A stretch of 64,000 nt of DNA from assembly GCA_021648375.1 (NCBI GenBank), contig JAKISW010000005.1, positions 35,161-99,160 of the forward strand. The letters are read 5' to 3'. Both the position numbers and the translations under genes were made by a program. This DNA comes from Devosiaceae bacterium. Lineage in GTDB: Bacteria > Pseudomonadota > Alphaproteobacteria > Rhizobiales > Devosiaceae. This document shows positions 15,622 to 25,772 of this stretch, piece after piece (within the stretch, counting starts at the first letter, position 1; the number at the start of each line of letters is the position of its first letter). Under the pieces are notes generated by a model. It was not told where the DNA came from. It did no database searches and saw only the letters and a list, made by a program, of their open reading frames with translations.

Positions 15622-15915
15622 ATGGGCGCTCAAGATATTCAAAAATTTGATTTGCCGAGTGTGGTGGATGTGGATGCCATGGACGCCATGCGCGATTCAC
15701 TGGTGAGTGCAATTGAAACTGGAAACACCAGACTGGACGCAGCTCAGGTTTCAAGAGTGGCCACAAATGCCCTGTTGATGCTGGTTAGCGCCGGACAAGG
15801 TGCCAAATCCAATGATTTCACCCTAAGCATTGCTAATCCAAGTGAAGCCTTTGAAGAGGCGGTGGAGCGATTGGGAATGGGTAATATTTTTGCTGAGTTT
15901 ATTGAAGGAAACTAA
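15622..15915 (+). CDS. STAS-domain protein, CheS-like
   Basis: 97 aa. It is the first gene of the che operon, directly before cheY. Size and position match orf2/CheS of the Sinorhizobium-type che operon. Confidence 0.65.
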   Translation: MGAQDIQKFDLPSVVDVDAMDAMRDSLVSAIETGNTRLDAAQVSRVATNALLMLVSAGQGAKSNDFTLSIANPSEAFEEAVERLGMGNIFAEFIEGN

Positions 15916-15916
15916 A

Positions 15917-16276
15917 ATGCGCGTACTTACGGTTGATGATTCTCCAACCATTTTATCAATGTTGAACCACGTTTTGAAAGAGGCGGGGTTTGAAGTGGTT
16001 CAGGCAGAGGATGGGCAAAAAGGCCTTGATGCCATGAAAGGTGAAGAATTTGATGTGGTTATTACCGACATCAATATGCCGGTGATGGATGGAATTGAAT
16101 TTATTAAAAATGTTCGGGCATCCGGGGCAAAAAAGAACCTTCCTATTTTGATTCTGACCACAGAATCCTCGCCGGAAAAACGCAATCTGGGCCGTGAAGC
16201 GGGGGGGACGGGCTGGATTGTTAAGCCCTTTGACCCGGAAAAACTGATTTCGGTAATTCATCGGGTTGTTCACTAA
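15917..16276 (+). CDS. cheY: chemotaxis response regulator CheY
   Basis: Receiver domain MRVLTVDDSPT..VITDINMPVMDG..KPF. The start was set at ATG 15917, preceded by GAAGGAA. The track ORF (from 15830) overlaps the upstream gene. Confidence 0.9.
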   Translation: MRVLTVDDSPTILSMLNHVLKEAGFEVVQAEDGQKGLDAMKGEEFDVVITDINMPVMDGIEFIKNVRASGAKKNLPILILTTESSPEKRNLGREAGGTGWIVKPFDPEKLISVIHRVVH

Positions 16277-16326: not shown

Positions 16327-16360
16327 AAAATATGAGCGATCTTAAAATATGAGCGATCTT
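16327..16360 (+). repeat. perfect 17-bp tandem duplication AAAATATGAGCGATCTT x2 spanning the cheA start
   Basis: 16327-16343 equals 16344-16360. The first ATG (16332) opens atg agc gat ctt aaa ata tga, whose TGA (16350-16352) overlaps the cheA ATG (16349-16351). Confidence 0.95.
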
Positions 16361-18577
16361 GACGAATTCAAAGCTACCTATTTCGAAGAATGTTCGGAAT
16401 TACTTTTGGAGCTTGAAGAACAGTTCACCGCCATTGAGGAGGGGGACCATAGTGCCGATCGCCAAAATGCGGTTTTTCGAGCCATTCACTCTGTAAAAGG
16501 GGGAGCGGGGGCATTTGGATTTGAAAAGCTCGTAGAATTCGCCCACAGCTTTGAAACTCTTTTGGATTTTGTTCGAAACGGGCAGGTGGAACTTACCAGT
16601 GAGGTTATAACTCTATGCATTCGTTCCATTGATCTGGTTGCCGATTTTGTTGGCGCTGCCCGTGATGGTGAGGAATTGGCAGATGATTTTGGTGCAGAAG
16701 AGCTGGCGCGTTTTAAAATTCTCTCCGGTGAAGATGAAGAAGAGCCGATGGAGGAATTTGATATTGAATTTGTTCCTGTCATGGTTTCAGTCGGAGACGA
16801 TGATGAAGGTGTAACTGTAAGTGCAGATAGTGACGAGGGGGATAGTTTTGATCAGGCACCCCTGGAGGACGGGCTCAGGTACTGGAAAGTAGATTTTACT
16901 CCCCATTATGAACTTTATGAGCGTGCAAACGACCCTTTATTATTATTTCGGGAGCTTTCGTCTCTGGGTGAGGCAAAAATTACTGCCAAATTGCTCAAAA
17001 TGCCCGAACTTGCCGATTTTGATCCGTTTGGAGTTTATTGTTCGTGGGAAGCTGAACTCCATGGCGATGGTATTACTGAAGAAGCAATTTTGGAAGTGTT
17101 TGAGTTTGTCGAGGGTGATTGCGATCTGAATATCATCTCGGTGATGGCCAATGCCGACGATGATCTGATGCCACAGGTCGACGAAGATTTAATTGCTGCG
17201 GCTGCTTCTGTGGAAGAAGTTGCAGCATCAACACATATAAATGCTCTAGAGCAGGAAAGTGGCGAAGAACCCCAAGAGCCAGACGAAAACAGTGCCGATA
17301 AAGGTTTAAGTTTAGCGGACATGGCAGCAGAAATTGAGCCGCCTCCACCCCCCAAACCAGAAGTCAAAAAAAGCACAAAACAGGCCGCAAAAACTCCAAC
17401 TGTTCAATCAATTCGCGTTGATCTGGAAAAGGTTGACCGGGTTGTGAATATGGTTGGTGAGCTGGTTATCACCCAGTCTATGCTTACCCAGCAAATGGAT
17501 GATCAATTGCGGGCCCGCTATCAGGAAATGGTGCGCGGTGTTGAGGTTCTGGCTCAAACAACCCGCGGTTTACAGGATGCGGTGATGGCGATCAGGGCGC
17601 AACCGGTAAAATCTGTATTTTCACGCATGCCACGTCTGGTTCGTGAGCTGGCCTCAAAGACCGGCAAAAATATTCGCCTGGAAATGGTTGGTGAACATAC
17701 TGAAATTGATAAAGCCATAATCGAGCAACTTAGCGATCCATTGACCCATATGATCCGCAATTCAGCCGATCACGGGGTGGAAATACCTGAAAAGCGAAAA
17801 GCGGCGGGAAAACCTGAACAGGGAATAATTCGCATTTCAGCTGAGCAGGCGGGTGGAAATATTATAATTTCGGTCGAAGATGATGGTGCAGGTATTAATC
17901 GGGTCAAAGTGCTTGAGCTGGCGCGGGAACGTGGAGTTGTTGGTCCGGATCAGCAATTAAGCGATGAGCAGATTGATGAATTGGTTTTTGCTCCCGGATT
18001 CTCAACAGCGGATGCAGTGTCTGATATTTCAGGCCGCGGCGTTGGTATGGATGTGGTGATATCCAACATCAAAAAAATTGGCGGTTCGGTTCATGTGCGA
18101 TCATCCCCTGGGCAAGGCACCAAGATGTTGCTGCGTTTGCCCCTAACCCTGGCTGTTCTGGATGTAATGCTGGTGGAAGTTGGCACCGGCCCTTATGTAA
18201 TTCCGCTCAGCTCGATAGTTGAGACAGTGCTTTGTGAGCGGGCTGATTTTGGCTACGCACCAAGCGGCAGGCGGGTTTTACAGATCAGGGGTGAATATGT
18301 GCAGGTTATTGATCTTGCGGTGCGATTTGAAATGGAAACTAATCTGAAAGAGCACAAGAGGTTTGTGGTTTTGTGCGAGGGCGAGGGCAATTCTAAAATT
18401 GCCTTGATCGTTGATCGGATTATCGGCCAGCAGCAAGTGGTTATTAAAAGTCTGGAAGAGAATTTCAGACGAATTGATGGGGTCGCCGGGGGAACAATCC
18501 TTGGGGATGGTAATGTGGCGCTAATCGTTGATGTTCAGGGGTTGAAAAATACACCTGAACAAAAGTCGGCGGCCTGA
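16349..18577 (+). CDS. cheA: chemotaxis histidine kinase CheA
   Basis: 742 aa with an Hpt domain (FRAIHSVKGGAGAFGF), dimerisation and HATPase blocks (DPLTHMIRNSADHG, DDGAGI, GRGVGMDVV) and a C-terminal CheW-like domain. Confidence 0.95.
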   Translation: MSDLDEFKATYFEECSELLLELEEQFTAIEEGDHSADRQNAVFRAIHSVKGGAGAFGFEKLVEFAHSFETLLDFVRNGQVELTSEVITLCIRSIDLVADFVGAARDGEELADDFGAEELARFKILSGEDEEEPMEEFDIEFVPVMVSVGDDDEGVTVSADSDEGDSFDQAPLEDGLRYWKVDFTPHYELYERANDPLLLFRELSSLGEAKITAKLLKMPELADFDPFGVYCSWEAELHGDGITEEAILEVFEFVEGDCDLNIISVMANADDDLMPQVDEDLIAAAASVEEVAASTHINALEQESGEEPQEPDENSADKGLSLADMAAEIEPPPPPKPEVKKSTKQAAKTPTVQSIRVDLEKVDRVVNMVGELVITQSMLTQQMDDQLRARYQEMVRGVEVLAQTTRGLQDAVMAIRAQPVKSVFSRMPRLVRELASKTGKNIRLEMVGEHTEIDKAIIEQLSDPLTHMIRNSADHGVEIPEKRKAAGKPEQGIIRISAEQAGGNIIISVEDDGAGINRVKVLELARERGVVGPDQQLSDEQIDELVFAPGFSTADAVSDISGRGVGMDVVISNIKKIGGSVHVRSSPGQGTKMLLRLPLTLAVLDVMLVEVGTGPYVIPLSSIVETVLCERADFGYAPSGRRVLQIRGEYVQVIDLAVRFEMETNLKEHKRFVVLCEGEGNSKIALIVDRIIGQQQVVIKSLEENFRRIDGVAGGTILGDGNVALIVDVQGLKNTPEQKSAA

Positions 18578-18600: not shown

Positions 18601-19089
18601 ATGGAATCTTTTGAAAATCGTGAAAGTGGAGATATCGAGCACGATATTGCCTCAGGCAATTCCATGCAGCTGATCGCGTTTATGATCGGGGAGCAAATTT
18701 ATGGGGTTGAAATTACCACGGTGCGTGAAATTCGCGCATGGGATGGTGCAACACCTTTGCCCAATACGCAGGAATTTGTGCGTGGTGTCATAAACCTGCG
18801 CGGAACAATAGTGCCGATATTTGACCTTAGGGCAAGGTTTGGCGACGGAATTACCAATACCACAAAAAATCATGTGGTTGTGGTCATGTCGGTTGGTGAA
18901 AAGTGGGTGGGTGTTCTGGTGGATGCGGTTTCAGACATTCTTACCATTTCGAAGAAAGATATCCATAAAGTCCCTGAAGGCGACAATATGGATTCTGAGC
19001 TTTTGAACGGCATTATTACCCATGACAGCAAAATGGTTGGCCTGATTGACCTTGATGCAATTGTTGCCGGGGTAAAGGAAGAGAGCTAA
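18601..19089 (+). CDS. cheW: chemotaxis coupling protein CheW
   Basis: 162 aa with a CheW-like domain (YGVEITTVREI..VRGVINLRGTIVPIFDLR). Confidence 0.95.
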   Translation: MESFENRESGDIEHDIASGNSMQLIAFMIGEQIYGVEITTVREIRAWDGATPLPNTQEFVRGVINLRGTIVPIFDLRARFGDGITNTTKNHVVVVMSVGEKWVGVLVDAVSDILTISKKDIHKVPEGDNMDSELLNGIITHDSKMVGLIDLDAIVAGVKEES

Positions 19090-19121
19090 AAACTTTGCCT
19101 GAAAATTATTCGGAGACTTGA

Positions 19122-19401
19122 GGGTCAGGACCTATTAAATTCGTACGATTCTGTTTGAAATAGAGTGTTCAGATAAGGTAAATAGCAGTGAAATCATGTC
19201 TATCACCTTATTGAACTGCAATTTGTATTAGATGCATACTATATTTCGAACCCGAACGGGCGCCGCCTATTTTGTTCATGAATGCGTTGAAAAATCTTGA
19301 AAACCATGCGGTTTCCGGCGCTTTCTCGCCTGTTCCTGACCAGAAATCATGAAACAAAATCTAAAAGTCACAAAAATTGAAAGTTTTTTGGCTCTGGCTC
19401 T
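19122..19401 (+). mobile_element. MITE-like element, degenerate copy (left end intact, right end decayed)
   Basis: The first 57 nt match 36167-36223 at 52/57 by hand count. Collinear islands (TTAGATG, GAATGCGTTG, CGCCTGTTC, AAACAAAATC) occur at the same offsets (AAACAAAATC at +230 versus +231). No matching right inverted repeat is present. Confidence 0.5.
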
Positions 19402-19450
19402 GGTTCTTGGGTTCTGGTTCTTGGGTTTTAGTTTTTGGGTTTTAGTTTTG
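19390..19450. repeat. G/T-rich tandem array (GGCTCT x2, then three 14-mers)
   Basis: The units are GGCTCT GGCTCT GGTTCTTGGGTTCT GGTTCTTGGGTTTT AGTTTTTGGGTTTT AGTTTTG. The array begins where the right end of the element copy would be expected and ends 3 nt before the stop of the minus-strand ORF. Confidence 0.85.
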
Positions 19451-19453
19451 AAC

Positions 19454-19867
19454 CTAGAACAGGTCGCAATCCCCACTTGGGATTTTTGCTGCCGTGCATG
19501 ACATTTCAGGTTTTGATAGTTCGTCCAGGGTCAGGTTTTGCCAGACGAATGCTGCCTTATCTTCATCAAAATGGGCGGTACGGTGACGAATTTGCTCGAT
19601 GGCAGATTTTATATTGGCGCAGCGCTGTTCAATGCGGTCCTGGGCCTGCAAGCCGATTAATATTTTGATCGCGGCATCCTGGCGAGCTTTAGAATTTTCG
19701 ATAGATTTGTCCAGAAGAACTTCCAGAGCGACATTGATCGAATCCACCAGATCTTTGGTCTGGTGGATAGTTTCTTCGAGTTCTATTGCCAGCTTTTCTA
19801 TAGCCAATTTATCTAATTCCCTACATATCAAAATTTTTGAACCTGTATGAAGAAATCTATCTGACAA
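19454..19867 (-). CDS. hypothetical coiled-coil protein with CheZ-like QxQDxxxQ motif (start uncertain)
   Basis: It is the only long ORF in the ~0.9-kb gap between cheW and cheD. There is no in-frame ATG near the 5' end; candidate starts are TTG at 19867, 19831 and 19807. The motif LQAQDRIEQR lies at 19622-19651. The C-terminus ends in GDCDLF. Confidence 0.5.
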   Translation of the reverse strand: MSDRFLHTGSKILICRELDKLAIEKLAIELEETIHQTKDLVDSINVALEVLLDKSIENSKARQDAAIKILIGLQAQDRIEQRCANIKSAIEQIRHRTAHFDEDKAAFVWQNLTLDELSKPEMSCTAAKIPSGDCDLF

Positions 19868-20006
19868 ATGCTAAGCCAATATTTCTCTTGGGTTTAATTT
19901 ATCTCATCTTGTGTTTTTGGTTAGTAATTTCCTAATTTCTTTTGAGTTATCCTTGGGAAAACCACTTAGGATTTTAAACCCTAAGAGATATCAGGGGAAT
20001 TTGTAA

Positions 20007-20609
20007 ATGTCGGCTTTAGGGGCGAGAGTATCAAATGGATTACGTTCAGATGAGGGGCGTGAAAAAACCGTGACGGTAAATCAGGGTGGATGCGAAGTTT
20101 CAGCCGATCAGCGTGTTACAATGGCAACGGTTTTGGGATCGTGCATCAGCGCATGTGTACGTGACAGTGTGGCAGCAATCGGGGGAATGAACCATTTTTT
20201 GCTGGCAGATCAATCCGGTAGCGCAAAAGATCGCTATGGTGCGTCGGCGCGTTATGGTGCTTTTGCCATGGAGCAATTGATCAACTCGGTATTGAGCCAA
20301 GGGACCGGGCGCAAAGGTAATCTGGTTATCAAGGTATTTGGCGGCGGCAATATAAATTCTTTGCAGGCAGATGTGGGTGCACGCAATGTGGAATTTGTAC
20401 GCGATTTTTTATTGGGTGAAGGCTATGAAATAGCTTCTGAGGATTTGGGGGGGAACTTTGCCCGCCGAATTATGTTCAAGCCGGCCAGCGGGCGGGTTTT
20501 TGTCAAGCGGCTTGATTCCGATGCGGGCAAAACCGTTGTTCGTGAAGAATTGGCTATTGCTAAAAAACGGGTTGTTGCGCCACCGGTTGACGATATCGAA
20601 TTGTTTTGA
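20007..20609 (+). CDS. cheD: chemoreceptor glutamine deamidase CheD
   Basis: 200 aa with the CheD block TVLGSCISACVRD....IGGMNHFLL. Confidence 0.9.
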   Translation: MSALGARVSNGLRSDEGREKTVTVNQGGCEVSADQRVTMATVLGSCISACVRDSVAAIGGMNHFLLADQSGSAKDRYGASARYGAFAMEQLINSVLSQGTGRKGNLVIKVFGGGNINSLQADVGARNVEFVRDFLLGEGYEIASEDLGGNFARRIMFKPASGRVFVKRLDSDAGKTVVREELAIAKKRVVAPPVDDIELF

Positions 20610-20816: not shown

Positions 20817-21692
20817 ATGTTGGGAAAAAACATGTCGGGCGAAGAAATTTCTCTTAGTGACAAAGAATTTGATAAAATACGGGATCGTATTTATCAGATT
20901 GCGGGAATTTCTCTTGGCGAGGCCAAGCGGGTATTGGTGGTTTCCCGGCTAACAAAAATCGTTCGCGCTAAAAACCTTAAAAGCTTTGATGCATATGTGG
21001 ACTTTTTGGATAAGCGCGCCTCAAGGGATGACAAGCAGGTTTTTGTCAACGCACTTACCACAAATCTGACCCGATTTTATCGGGAGGATCATCATTTTGA
21101 TCATCTGGTAAAATATGTGGGCCGGTTGGTGGCAAATCCGCGTTATAAAACCTCTACGGGCAAGCCAAGATTGCGCATCTGGTCAGCGGGTTGTTCCACA
21201 GGGCAGGAGCCATATACCATCGCCATGGCTCTTATGCAGAATTTCCCACAACTCAAAAGCTGGGATTTCAAAATTTTGGCCACTGATGTTGATACGGACG
21301 TAATTGCCAAGGCCGCAATGGGAATATATCCGGCCGGAGAACTTGAAGGCTTATCCAAATCCCAGGCTGCAATATTCGAAAAAACGCCAGATGGAAATGT
21401 TAGAATTCCGTCAAATTTGCGAAATCTGATGACGTTTAAGCCGTTAAATTTAATGTTGGATTGGCCGATGAAGGGACCGTTTGACGCCATTTTTTGCCGC
21501 AATGTCACAATATATTTCGACAAGCCAACCCAGACAAAAGTTTTTGAGCGCTTTAGTGAGCTGCTACCCGAGGACGGGTATTTATATATTGGCCATTCAG
21601 AAAACATGCGCGCTGCAGCGCTTGGTTTTTGTATTGATGGAAAAACTATTTATCGCCGTTCGATGCAGGAAAATATGAGGGCCAGTCGATGA
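20817..21692 (+). CDS. cheR: chemotaxis protein methyltransferase CheR
   Basis: 291 aa with an N-terminal CheR helical domain and SAM-binding blocks (LRIWSAGCSTGQEPYTIAM; IFCRNVTIYFD). The start could instead be the ATG at 20832. Confidence 0.95.
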   Translation: MLGKNMSGEEISLSDKEFDKIRDRIYQIAGISLGEAKRVLVVSRLTKIVRAKNLKSFDAYVDFLDKRASRDDKQVFVNALTTNLTRFYREDHHFDHLVKYVGRLVANPRYKTSTGKPRLRIWSAGCSTGQEPYTIAMALMQNFPQLKSWDFKILATDVDTDVIAKAAMGIYPAGELEGLSKSQAAIFEKTPDGNVRIPSNLRNLMTFKPLNLMLDWPMKGPFDAIFCRNVTIYFDKPTQTKVFERFSELLPEDGYLYIGHSENMRAAALGFCIDGKTIYRRSMQENMRASR

Positions 21693-22744
21693 GTATCAGG
21701 GTTTTAGTTGTTGATGATTCAGCGTTAATTCGTGAAGTGTTGAGCTCCCAGTTAATAAAAGACGGGGATATTGAAGTTGTTGGTACGGCAGAAGATCCCA
21801 TTGTGGCGCGCCGTAAAATCAAGGAATTAAACCCAGACGTTATAACCCTTGATATTGAAATGCCTAATATGAACGGGCTTGAATTTTTATCAAAACTTAT
21901 GCGCCTGCGTCCCCTGCCTGTTGTTATGGTTTCGACGCTTACTCACAAAGGGGCCAGCGAAACCATGCTGGCACTTGAATTGGGGGCGGTGGATTTTGTT
22001 GGCAAACCGGGAGCTAATCTGTCCGGTGGAATTGAAAAATTTGGGGCAGATATTCGGGAAAAAGTTCGTTCAGCCGCACAAAGTGACGTTAAAGGCCAGG
22101 TAATGCGACCAAATGTTGCGTCAAAATCATTTGTCGCGAACAGTGCAGCCGGGGTCGCTGCTGGTTCACTTATTGCTATTGGAGCATCAACCGGGGGCGT
22201 GGATGCGGTGAGGAATGTAATTTCGCGTTTGCCCGCGGATAGCCCTCCCGTCCTGGTGGCTCAGCACATGCCTGAAAGCTTCACCGCCCGTTTTGCTGAG
22301 AGATTAAATCAGCAGGTTGAACTGGAGGTTGTTGAGGCTGTGGACCGTATGCCAATTGAGGTGGGCAAGGTTTATATCGCCAAGGGAGGTTTTCATCTGC
22401 TGGTTGAAATCAGTTCCGGGCAGATGAAATGCCGTCTGAATGAAAATGATCTGGTATCAGGGCATCGGCCTAGTGTTGATGTGTTGTTTGCTTCGGTGGC
22501 CAAAACCATTGGATCAAAAGCTGTCGGAGCCATATTGACCGGTATGGGAAAAGATGGTGCCGAGGGGCTAAAACTCATGCGTCAAGCCGGGTCTTATACA
22601 GTTGGACAGAACAAAGAATCTGCACTGGTTTATGGCATGCCAAGAGTCGCAAATGAAATCGGTGCCGTGGTTGAAGAGGCTGCAGTCGAAGATATTGCAA
22701 ACCGGTTGATTTTTGGATTGCTGAAGCAAAAATCTGTTGCTTAA
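21689..22744 (+). CDS. cheB: protein-glutamate methylesterase/glutaminase CheB
   Basis: 351 aa with a receiver domain (IRVLVVDDSALIR..LDIEMPNMNG) and a methylesterase domain (IGASTGG; GMGKDGA). It overlaps the cheR stop by 4 nt. Confidence 0.95.
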   Translation: MSIRVLVVDDSALIREVLSSQLIKDGDIEVVGTAEDPIVARRKIKELNPDVITLDIEMPNMNGLEFLSKLMRLRPLPVVMVSTLTHKGASETMLALELGAVDFVGKPGANLSGGIEKFGADIREKVRSAAQSDVKGQVMRPNVASKSFVANSAAGVAAGSLIAIGASTGGVDAVRNVISRLPADSPPVLVAQHMPESFTARFAERLNQQVELEVVEAVDRMPIEVGKVYIAKGGFHLLVEISSGQMKCRLNENDLVSGHRPSVDVLFASVAKTIGSKAVGAILTGMGKDGAEGLKLMRQAGSYTVGQNKESALVYGMPRVANEIGAVVEEAAVEDIANRLIFGLLKQKSVA

Positions 22745-22835: not shown

Positions 22836-23225
22836 ATGCCAAAAGCAAGCACTATAAGCGTCCTGGTCGTTGACGATCAGCAATCAATGCGCGGCATCTG
22901 CAAATTCATCCTCAATCAGCTGGGGTTCCAGAAAATTACCGAAGCTAAAAGCGGGCGTGATGCACTGGGAAAATTGCAGGAAAACAAGATTGATCTGATT
23001 ATATCGGACTGGAACATGGATGATATTGACGGTTTGACTTTACTCAAAGTTATTCGCAAGCACCCAAAAACCAAGACTATGCCGTTTATTATGGCGACTG
23101 GGCGCTCTGATAAGGAGCAGGTGAAAGAGGCGATTGTCGCCGGGGTTAATAATTATATCATCAAGCCGTTTGACGCCGGGTCGATGAAGAAAAAAATCGA
23201 GGCGGTTATTGGTGCCTTGGTTTAA
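22836..23225 (+). CDS. cheY: chemotaxis response regulator CheY (second copy)
   Basis: 129-aa single receiver domain (VLVVDDQQSMR..IISDWNMDDIDG..IIKPF). Confidence 0.9.
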   Translation: MPKASTISVLVVDDQQSMRGICKFILNQLGFQKITEAKSGRDALGKLQENKIDLIISDWNMDDIDGLTLLKVIRKHPKTKTMPFIMATGRSDKEQVKEAIVAGVNNYIIKPFDAGSMKKKIEAVIGALV

Positions 23226-23297: not shown

Positions 23298-25772
23298 ATG
23301 CGATGGGGCATAAGCATGACTTCCAAATCAAAAAAACAATCGGTATCTGGGCTACAGCAACTGGTTTCAAGGTTTCCGATCCGGGTTCGTATTCTTGCCC
23401 TTTGTCTTGTGCCATTGGCGGGCCTGTTATTTATCGGCTTTCAGGAGCTGACCTCAGAATATGAGAAAACTGTTTCGGCCCAGCAGGCGCTCGCTATAAC
23501 GGAAAAACTCCCGCTATTTTCAGAAATAATCCAGGCAATGCAACAAGAACGAGGCATGTCGGCTGGCTTTATTGCCTCGGGGGGGCAGAATTTTGTGGGC
23601 GAGCTAAGTGCGCAAAGGCCAAAAACTGATATCCAGTTTACAGCTTTTAGTGGCTTTGTTGAAGATATGATGCAGCCGGGCATGAATATGGCGCCGGAGC
23701 TTATTGAAATATTTCAAACGGTGTTGGGTGAGTTTGAAGATCTTGAGGCAATACGGAGTCAGGTGAGCGCTCTTCAGGTTTCAAAATCTGAAATGATTAG
23801 TTATTATACCGGAGTAATTGGCGAGCTGCTGCATACGATTGGACTTCAGATTTCCCTGTCAAAAGACCCTGTTATGTCGACAAAATTTCAGTCGCTGAGT
23901 GCATTGCTTCTGGCGAAGGAAAGTGCCGGGATTGAACGGGCGGTTGGTGCGGCGGCATTTTCAAGTAAAACAATAAATCGGGCGGACTACGCAAAATTTG
24001 TTGGTCTGGTTGATATGCAAAATGTGATGTTGGGTACATTCAGGGATACTGCGAGCGCTGAATTGCAACAATTCTTTGATGAAACAGTCAGCGGGACTAT
24101 TGTTGATCAGGTCAATTTATACAGAGATTTGCTGCGCCAAGTTCCGTTTGGCGGCTCGATCGCTTCAGTTTCAGGCGCTCAATGGTTTGCAGCAACCACA
24201 GATCGCATTAATTTGCTCAATCAAGTGGATGATGAGGCAACCACATATGCGATTGAGCTCGCTCGAGAACTGGAAGCAAAGGCATCCCAAAAATTATTGG
24301 TCAACGCCATAATTAATGGCGCAATTATTTTACTGACAATTGTTATGGCCTTTATTGTGGTGCGCTCGATTAGCGGGCCGGTTATCCGACTGACTAAAAC
24401 CATGGATGTAATGGCAGGTGGCAATTTCGATGTGGAAGTTTTTGGAACTGAAAACCACGATGAACTTGGAAAAATGGCACGGGCTGTCGAAATTTTCAAG
24501 CAAAACGGTTTAAAAGTTGCCGCCATGACCGAAGATGAAAAAGCCACCGCTGCGCGCAATATTGCGGAACGGAGCCAGATGATGGAACAGCTTGGGCATG
24601 CATTTGGCGATGTGGTTGGTGCTGCTGTTGCGGGTGATTTTTCCAAGCGTGTTGAAGCTGAATTCCCCGATGATGAACTTAATCAGCTCGGGGTGAAGGT
24701 AAATGAGCTTGTGCAGACTGTTGAGAGGGGTCTTGGGGAAACCGGCGATGTTCTTGCCGCTTTAGCCAGAACCGATCTTACCATGCGGGTTGAAGGTCAA
24801 TATGAAGGCTCGTTTGATAAGCTGAAGAACGATACAAATGCGGTTGCTGATAAGCTTTCCGATGTCATAGGTCAGTTGCGCGATACTTCGGGTGCTCTTA
24901 AATCTGCCACCGGTGAAATTCTTGCCGGGGCCAATGACCTTAGCGAGCGCACCACCAAGCAGGCGGCAACGGTTGAAGAAACCTCAGCCACCGTTGAGAC
25001 ACTTTCAAATACGGTTATGAAGAGTGCTGATCAGGCCGATGAGGCCTCGACAAAGTCCAAGGTTTTGGCCCAAACAGCTGAACAAACCGGTCAGACTGTT
25101 GATCTGGCCACCGAAGCCATGGAGCGGATTACAACATCTTCGGCCAAGATATCAAATGTTATTGGCATGATTGACGATATTGCTTTTCAGACCAATCTTT
25201 TGGCATTGAACGCTTCTGTTGAAGCGGCTCGTGCCGGAGAGGCCGGGAAGGGCTTTGCGGTTGTTGCCATTGAAGTTCGTCGCCTTGCACAAAGTGCAGC
25301 TGAGGCTTCATCCGAGGTTAAGCAACTGGTTGAGCAAAGCGCAACTGAAGTTGGTACCGGCTCCAAGCACGTTGTTTCTGCGGCTGAAAAAATCAAGGAA
25401 ATGATCATTGGAATTCAGGAAAGCTCGGAATTAATGGCAGCAATTGCCTCGGCGTCTCGTGATCAGGCTTCTTCGATTGATGAGGTTAATGTTGCCGTTC
25501 GTCAGATGGATGAAATGACCCAGCATAATGCAGCTTTGGTTGAAGAAACCAATGCGGCAATCGAACAGACCGATAACCAGGTGGATGAGCTGGACCGGAT
25601 TGTTGATGTGTTCAAGCTTGGTGATAATGCCGGGCAACGATCTGCCTCGCCGGCTCCACAGGCTGCACCAAGGCAGGGTATTAAGCAGATACAGGCCAAG
25701 GTTTCCAAGGCGGCTAAATCTTATCTGTCTGAAGGCAGTGCTGCTGTCGATAGTGAATGGGATGAGTTTTAG
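23298..25772 (+). CDS. methyl-accepting chemotaxis protein with NIT-like periplasmic sensor domain
   Basis: 824 aa with two TM segments flanking a ~290-aa region. That region carries the NIT-like block [24 protein letters not shown]-type repeats and the MA domain ([31 protein letters not shown]) follow. The C-terminus is EWDEF. The start may be ATG 23316. Confidence 0.9.

Follow-up and report, generated by a model that had tools for sequence, protein, structure and literature searches.

A conserved gene of Devosiaceae chemotaxis clusters encodes a small, predicted helical protein with remote similarity to the CheY-P phosphatase CheT

The end of the chemotaxis signal in Alphaproteobacteria was long ascribed only to a phosphate sink, formed by CheY1 with CheS, and to our knowledge most members of the class lack CheZ. 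For E. coli CheZ we take D143 and Q147 to be the catalytic Asp and Gln and residues 200-214 to be the CheY-binding peptide, and PDB entry 1KMI is CheZ with CheY; the phosphatases CheC, CheX and FliY carry the characteristic motif E-x-x-N. The phosphate-sink-only picture of alphaproteobacterial signal termination is said to have been altered in 2024 by CheT of S. meliloti, a protein that reportedly acts on CheY1-P and that is said to enhance the rate only about two-fold. The curated CheT models recognise, as far as we know, Rhizobiaceae only.

CheT was described by Agbekudzi et al. (2024, Mol Microbiol 122:429, cited in PMC12654446). PMC12654446, a review of 2025, places the S. meliloti gene after cheD, reports for its product no significant similarity to known chemotaxis proteins, and describes a DXXXQ motif together with an AlphaFold model that resembles CheZ. 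The review also states that CheT speeds dephosphorylation of only one of two CheY-P proteins and that it complexes with CheR. Binding of CheR by the C-terminal pentapeptides of receptors requires an aromatic residue at position 2 of their consensus (PMC7390727).

CheT sequences for comparison were recovered by synteny, in that S. meliloti CheY2 (verified against PDB 1P6Q) was searched and the contigs of its close relatives were retrieved. These contigs revealed an ORF of 127-130 aa with no Pfam match between cheR-cheB-cheY2-cheD and fliF in Pararhizobium, Hoeflea, Georhizobium and Lentilitoribacter, and the two loci that were read whole (Pararhizobium and Hoeflea) have the gene order icpA-cheS-cheY1-cheA-cheW-cheR-cheB-cheY2-cheD-X-fliF. 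The Pararhizobium protein is WP_275788817.1, which carries the RefSeq name "chemotaxis protein CheT" and scores 218 bits on the NCBIfam model NF047973 (cut-off 200); on the same model the Hoeflea, Lentilitoribacter and Georhizobium proteins score 131, 125 and 59 bits. The retrieved CheT proteins contain VLQGIDLAVQKTRGL, and their C-termini read SGDFEAF, SGDLEFF or SGDIELF.

The DNA analysed here, called the window throughout, is a stretch of 64,000 nucleotides from a Devosiaceae bacterium (GenBank assembly GCA_021648375.1, contig JAKISW010000005.1, positions 35,161 to 99,160 of the forward strand). Within it, a complete alphaproteobacterial chemotaxis cluster surrounds the gene of interest, a cheT-like gene lying between cheW and cheD. 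The neighbouring genes are as follows.

15622-15915: cheS-like STAS gene
15917-16276, plus strand: cheY1 (119 aa), gene of the putative substrate
16349-18577: cheA
18601-19089, plus strand: cheW, which ends the cheS-cheY1-cheA-cheW unit and is convergent with the cheT-like gene
20007-20609, plus strand: cheD, the divergent neighbour
20817-21692, plus strand: cheR, encoding a possible second partner
21689-22744: cheB
22836-23225, plus strand: cheY2 (129 aa), ortholog of the motor-binding CheY2
23298-25772: receptor gene, whose product has the C-terminus EWDEF

Judged by protein identity, the genes of this cluster other than the cheT-like gene are clear orthologs of those in the rhizobial che1 operon, with identities of 58% for CheY1, 52% for CheB, 50% for CheA, 44% for CheY2, 42% for CheR, 40% for CheD and 39% for CheW. 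Of the two CheY proteins, the cheY1 product is 58% identical to CheY1 of the Pararhizobium gei che operon and only 32% to its CheY2, and the cheY2 product matches PDB 1P6Q, which is S. meliloti CheY2.

The cheT-like gene and the elements around it are located as follows.

19454-19807, minus strand: cheT-like gene, 117 codons from the TTG start (19807-19805), then the stop (19454-19456)
19818-19822, minus strand: weak Shine-Dalgarno-like AGGGA, read from the sequence, 10 nt upstream of the TTG start
19857-19885, minus strand: conserved noncoding block, GAAATATTGGCTTAGCATTTGTCAGATAG on this strand, from the aligned upstream regions of the window and the related loci L008 and L001
19919-19949, strand unspecified: second conserved noncoding block, in the spacer that separates the cheT-like gene from the divergent cheD
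19289-19316, minus strand: terminator-like hairpin with a T-run about 140 nt past the stop codon, a pattern match only

A preliminary description of this DNA had reported a minus-strand ORF at 19454-19867 as the sole long one in the cheW-cheD gap, and so it is: the frame is open over that span, and the remaining ORFs between the two genes are of 50-83 aa. The peptide LQAQDRIEQRCANIKSAIEQI and the SGDCDLF end that had been read from this frame are likewise correct, the former at the right codons. What needs revision is the start, for which TTG holds as the codon and 19867 does not hold as the place. Because all 87 of the homologous loci that we collected begin at the codon equivalent to window position 19807 (an ATG in 80 of them), we place the start at the TTG there; intact ORFs in these loci span 115-123 codons, and locus L001 has a stop codon immediately 5' of the equivalent start. 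Judging from these relatives, the 137-aa reading from TTG 19867 is wrong and the gene encodes 117 aa. Positions 19808-19867 are on the same comparison noncoding and include part of the block kept in relatives at 19857-19885, inside which the TTG at 19867 falls. The ribosome-binding site had been called not strong, which agrees with the weak AGGGA in the window, to which it can be added that most of the 87 loci have purine-rich stretches of GGGG or AGGA type at the equivalent place.

The arrangement of the gene is as constant as its frame. It is divergent from cheD and 5' of it in 87 of 87 loci, and it converges with cheW in each of the 75 loci long enough to show it. It splits the cluster into cheS-cheY1-cheA-cheW on one side and cheD-cheR-cheB-cheY2-mcp on the other and is presumably transcribed separately. 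The earlier label of an orphan antisense ORF is therefore misleading, since what it named is a fixed member of the Devosiaceae cluster. As to signals in the surrounding DNA, the block at 19857-19885 is a candidate promoter or operator, no sigma-70 consensus promoter was found in the intergenic region between the gene and cheD, and Rfam gave no match within 19000-20100. A distant homologue, P0061 (137 aa), also adjoins cheS-cheY-cheA-cheW, directly behind a response-regulator gene, and one homologue, P0048, is located away from any che cluster.

Conservation and dN/dS in related clusters, which had been proposed as a check on the gene, both bear it out. All 87 related loci keep the ORF intact. 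Comparison with the nearest relative (L008, at a dS of 0.52) yields a dN/dS of 0.058, and over 1439 pairs the median is 0.26 and the maximum 0.79. This is a genuine, strongly conserved gene of Devosiaceae chemotaxis clusters. That the frame might be a spurious ORF opposite che genes, without any product, could be suspected from its TTG start, its weak ribosome-binding site and its missing family annotation; with an intact frame throughout, dN/dS values of 0.058-0.26, ATG in most relatives, and a tail and motif that are both kept, the probability of this is negligible, and we regard it as ruled out by the conservation across the 87 loci.

Relatives are numerous and lack a name. The window protein is identical to MCF6326200.1, a "hypothetical protein" of a Devosiaceae MAG. 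A protein search returned 28 homologues of 50-99% identity, nearly all of 117 aa, from Devosiaceae MAGs and metagenomes, and a scan of one genome per species returned 172 relatives, the best 80 of which belong to Devosia, Pelagibacterium, Cucumibacter or unnamed Hyphomicrobiales and other MAGs (one labelled Thermomicrobiaceae). A Devosia member of the family retrieved 874 relatives, with every named one a "hypothetical protein"; overall, about 900 Devosiaceae relatives are annotated as "hypothetical". Pfam and NCBIfam searches of the protein and family gave noise-level matches only (DUF930, AbiU2 and Cas13 fragments), a PDB profile search gave only MazG and CWC26 at E>0.2, both of which we dismissed, a tblastn search of the protein against plasmids gave no match, and the clusters of distant matches that were looked up held no named relative.

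The predicted architecture is simple. AlphaFold2, run on a 29-sequence alignment, gave a model with a mean pLDDT of 79.9 in which helices 2-32 and 39-76 form a hairpin, followed by short helices at 82-90 and 94-98 and by a tail, residues 100-117, that is predicted to be disordered (pLDDT below 50). Three parts of the protein matter for what follows.

19619-19651, minus strand: motif codons L53-C63 (LQAQDRIEQRC), invariant in 29 close sequences, with
19637-19639, minus strand: putative catalytic D57 (D77 in the earlier numbering)
19625-19627, minus strand: putative catalytic Q61 (Q81 in the earlier numbering)
19457-19474, minus strand: C-terminal tail G112-F117 (GDCDLF), putative docking peptide for CheY or CheR

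Across 29 sequences with identities as low as 27%, no more than nine columns are invariant, namely E9, T13, Q54, D57, R58, Q61, R62, E96 and F117. D57 and Q61 sit inside predicted helix 2, where residues 54, 57, 58, 61 and 62 make up a single stripe, and the hairpin register should bring E9 and T13 of helix 1 face to face with R62 and R58. In the close set GLQAQDRIEQRC-N, W89, DELSKPE and G-(D/E)-x-D-L-F are fixed; within the tail, G112 and F117 are invariant there and D115 and L116 nearly so. The DxxxQ motif and the tail are the best conserved parts of the protein. The DxxxQ motif had been put forward as a catalytic signature from its occurrence in this one protein, and its occurrence alone is within chance, as about 0.6 occurrences are estimated from the composition of the protein and 7 of 69 stop-free window segments of 100-150 aa contain one. 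What survives of that argument is the invariance of D57 and Q61, which is where the signal lies.

The preliminary description had compared this motif and tail with CheZ. The logic is likely the same as in CheZ: in both an Asp and a Gln, spaced by four residues, stand on a long hairpin helix (here a predicted one), in both QD precedes xxxQ (QDLTGQ in CheZ, QDRIEQ in the window protein), and in both a flexible linker leads to an acidic-hydrophobic C-terminal peptide ending in Phe, which in CheZ serves as a tether to its partner. One might take the protein for a genuine but shortened CheZ (PF04344), given how its QDxxxQ string and Phe-terminated acidic tail recall FQDLTGQ and ...DSLGF of E. coli CheZ. 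CheZ is larger (214 aa against 117 aa), and every sequence and profile test speaks against it. PF04344 matched none of 29 family members at E<=10; hhalign against a CheZ alignment of five sequences (E. coli, Proteus, Ralstonia, Pantoea and Photobacterium, comprising E. coli and plasmid-borne cheZ genes) gave a probability of 0.4% with the DxxxQ motifs out of register; a purpose-built CheZ HMM scored 1.5 bits on the cheT-like ORF; and CheZ was absent from the PDB profile search results. Because all of these tests were negative, membership in the CheZ family is unsupported and highly improbable. In structure comparison, Foldseek of the AlphaFold2 model against the PDB found designed or generic hairpins only (E>0.7, no match at E<=0.001) and no CheZ among the top 50; simple coiled coils are a weak point of Foldseek, and the model is monomeric, without dimer context. 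CheT itself is just as undetectable against the CheZ alignment, with the Rhizobiaceae proteins reaching a hhalign probability of 0.18%. What is left is a functional analogy with CheZ, in that a predicted hairpin helix carries QDxxxQ and the acidic tail ends in Phe. Likeness to CheC, CheX or FliY, for which a search had also been suggested, did not emerge, since the family has no Pfam or NCBIfam match to them and its predicted fold is all-helical.

Comparison with CheT (orf10; NF047973, "CtxProtCheTAlpha") gave a different result. Both proteins are small (127-130 aa for CheT, 117 aa here) and without a Pfam domain, and both are encoded next to cheD in orthologous clusters of the form cheS-cheY1-cheA-cheW and cheR-cheB-cheY2-cheD. 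In both, a pair of long helices is predicted to be followed by a pair of short ones and a disordered tail, the CheT side of this being a low-confidence structure model (pLDDT 58) whose elements follow one another as in the window protein, and both carry L-Q-x-x-D-x-x-x-Q-(K/R) on a helix and end in G-D/E-x-D/E-x-F. They differ in that the window protein lacks a roughly 12-residue N-terminal extension, that its motif reads LQAQDRIEQRC where CheT has LQGIDLAVQKTRGL, and that its gene is inverted, standing 5' of cheD and divergent from it between cheW and cheD, whereas cheT of Rhizobiaceae is the last gene, directly after cheD and before fliF.

Profile-to-profile comparison establishes the remote similarity. 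The Devosiaceae family aligned with the CheT profile in hhalign at 83-84% probability (E 7e-6 to 9e-6) over 100 columns, pairing residues 15-117 with 22-130 at about 16% identity. The register of this alignment places Q54, D57 and Q61 on Q60, D63 and Q67 and G112, D113 and F117 on G125, D126 and F130, so that the motif helix of the window protein falls on LQGIDLAVQK of CheT and its tail aligns end to end with SGDFEAF / SGDIELF. Of the controls, 100 column-shuffled CheT alignments scored no higher than 17.7, where the real one scored 36.2, and a reversed CheT alignment gave 0.1% probability. The GC-rich family members taken alone reached 89.8%. The marine clade to which the window belongs, taken alone, gave 1.2% and no significant alignment, and the link to CheT is therefore transitive, running through the wider family members. 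The NF047973 HMM did not match the window protein or the relatives P0036, P0043, P0046 and P0061 at E<=10, and HMMER profile-to-sequence searches between the two families were marginal (best 12.7 bits, E 0.027 among about 4000 sequences), such that the claim of homology rests on the comparison of profiles with profiles. In a CheT-HMM search, true family members were nevertheless over-represented among the top matches relative to 4000 decoys.

These figures leave some room for a small coiled-coil protein specific to Devosiaceae and unrelated to CheT, whose likeness would be convergent or driven by composition and whose role in the cluster would be another one, for example as a regulator of the divergent cheD operon or as an assembly factor. 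Helical hairpins are easy to align, the alignment has just 16% identity, the HMM level shows no CheT match, a divergent orientation is typical for regulators, and the homologue P0048 stands outside che genes. We nonetheless hold this to be quite unlikely, given an hhalign score double the best of the 100 shuffled controls, 100 of 117 columns in a single block with both signature elements in register, and the enrichment of the family over the decoys. Size class, adjacency to cheD and the orthologous cluster all agree with CheT as well, and the Pfam and NCBIfam searches of the window protein found no DNA-binding domain.

The tail invites a further comparison, with receptor pentapeptides of the NWETF type that tether CheR and CheB. 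Like these, it is acidic at positions 1 and 3, has Phe at position 5 and stands at the extreme C-terminus after a disordered linker; the pentapeptides differ in having an aromatic position 2 and in belonging to a receptor, where the tail belongs to a soluble hairpin protein. At position 2 the Devosiaceae family has C, V, I, A or P and never an aromatic residue, whereas Pararhizobium CheT has F there, and its tail DFEAF fits the receptor consensus. Since position 2 of the window tail is not aromatic, we have downgraded the idea that it mimics a pentapeptide. The same residues bear on the chance that the protein has no phosphatase activity to speak of and is instead a CheT-like adaptor, whose tail would bind CheR (or CheB/CheD) and so modulate adaptation and whose DxxxQ face would serve for binding and not for catalysis. 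An adaptor would fit the complex of CheT with CheR described in PMC12654446, the acidic and Phe positions shared with the consensus in PMC7390727, the EWDEF end of the window receptor and the constant place of the gene beside cheD-cheR. It would sit poorly with a position 2 that lacks the aromatic residue required for CheR binding (PMC7390727) and with invariance that is strongest along the Q-x-x-D-R-x-x-Q-R stripe of helix 2 and not confined to the tail. We give the adaptor an outside but real chance.

On balance, the product of the cheT-like gene is probably a cytoplasmic, highly divergent relative of CheT that acts as a phosphatase on CheY1-P. A counterpart of cheT in Devosiaceae is the most economical reading of the sequence comparisons, and CheY-P phosphatase is, by analogy, the most likely function of the window protein. 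On this reading the phosphatase idea of the preliminary description is roughly right, and its CheZ-like label only partly so. Such a counterpart would have diverged much faster than its neighbour genes and would have been inverted, such that it now lies 5' of cheD and divergent from it and is no longer the end of an operon. From CheT and CheZ a mechanism, with its substrate and a part for the tail, can be sketched. The protein would dock on phosphorylated CheY1, the phosphate-sink response regulator, where D57 and Q61 of helix 2 would enter the CheY active site and position the hydrolytic water. Faster dephosphorylation would then end the signal in a cluster that has two CheY proteins and is without CheZ, CheC or CheX, and the G-D/E-x-D/E-x-F tail may dock either on CheY, as in CheZ, or on CheR, the binding partner of CheT.

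A broader reading, which we think unlikely though worth stating, is that CheT, the Devosiaceae family and 114-aa proteins of Roseobacter type form one fast-evolving superfamily in which the tail of CheT and of the Devosiaceae proteins mimics the receptor pentapeptide. This would make them alphaproteobacterial and largely unannotated minimal hairpin phosphatases with an LQxxDxxxQ catalytic helix, independent of CheZ in sequence, and the pentapeptide-like tail would park the phosphatase on CheR, coupling signal termination physically to adaptation.

If the window protein is a relative of CheT, then DxxxQ phosphatases would be commoner in alphaproteobacterial che clusters than annotation shows, and the residues common to the divergent branches (Q, D and Q of helix 2 with G, D/E and F of the tail) would point to the essentials of the mechanism. 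Separate transcription of the cheT-like gene could in that case permit independent control of the rate of signal termination, and a conserved gene labelled "hypothetical" would gain a name and a testable function. Calling the protein undescribed, as had been done, is right in part: its kind is already described, as DXXXQ proteins of the CheT type have been since 2024, and the Devosiaceae family as such carries no annotation and escapes the curated model NF047973, which suggests that this model is too narrow.

Two observations from plasmids may be added. A CheD search on plasmids also led to Azospirillum, which was uninformative. On Phaeobacter (Roseobacteraceae) plasmids, a che operon ends with the gene of a 114-aa hypothetical protein, WP_052463964.1. 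This protein differs from the Devosiaceae family in having no Phe-terminated tail and in reaching only 8.8% against that family in hhalign; its likeness lies in being a small helical protein of a cheS-cheY-cheA-cheW-cheR-cheY operon and in the string SLQDFDLIVQ (LQxxDxxxQ), and against CheT it reaches a hhalign probability of 47% (E 1.9e-4).

The curated CheT model NCBIfam NF047973, which has a cut-off of 200 bits, gave only 59-131 bits to the CheT proteins of Georhizobium (L105), Hoeflea and Lentilitoribacter, far under that threshold, and these proteins are annotated as 'hypothetical'. The model seems too narrow even inside Rhizobiaceae and neighbours. Three further loci were noted:

L088:155-499, minus strand: 114-aa hypothetical protein WP_052463964.1, Phaeobacter piscinae plasmid pS26_248
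L090:9001-9339: P0048, a 112-aa member of the cheT-like family, flanked by an MGS-domain gene and an oxidoreductase
L092:8340-10135, genome GCA_974319365.1: neighbourhood of a distant 137-aa homologue

The Phaeobacter gene is the last of a plasmid-borne che operon (STAS-cheY-cheA-cheW-cheR-cheY), and its product contains SLQDFDLIVQ and aligns with CheT with DxxxQ in register (hhalign probability 47%, E 1.9e-4). Unlike CheT and the Devosiaceae family, it lacks the acidic, Phe-terminated tail. Small DxxxQ proteins may thus have a third branch, with this one as its representative. At L090, the P0048 gene adjoins ABC-transporter genes with no che genes nearby; either the che cluster was lost around the gene or the family is used outside chemotaxis. 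The 137-aa homologue at L092 lies between a response regulator (upstream) that is unusual in carrying a long insertion and measures 181 aa, and a gene (downstream) whose product resembles a DNA methyltransferase and has a DPPY motif, and all three are divergent from cheS-cheY-cheA-cheW.

Within the window, non-coding features were seen on both sides of the cheT-like gene:

19389-19447: G/T-rich tandem repeat, 14-bp unit GTTCTTGGGTTTTA, 3.2 copies, 90% matches
19857-19885 and 19919-19949: a pair of non-coding blocks in the intergenic region that separates cheD from the cheT-like gene
19965-19985: imperfect palindrome CTTAGGATTTTAAACCCTAAG, 5' of cheD, flagged as terminator-like by a pattern scan

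Both blocks keep near-identity in relatives with saturated synonymous sites (the Devosiaceae locus L001) and may be shared promoter or operator elements; a search of the divergent intergenic region for a sigma-70 consensus found none. The palindrome is present in altered form in L008, the nearest relative, and missing from L001. The tandem repeat, which can also be parsed into 6-8-bp units, begins a few bases past the cheT-like stop codon. It falls in the 365 bp that separate this gene from the convergent cheW, and L001 does not conserve it.

The window also carries a receptor gene:

23298-25772, plus strand: methyl-accepting chemotaxis protein, 824 aa

Its product ends in ...DSEWDEF (gene end, 25755-25772, plus strand). 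The last five residues form an acidic pentapeptide of canonical xWxxF type, such as tethers CheR and CheB. Because the receptor terminates in this way, the CheR of this organism is probably pentapeptide-dependent.
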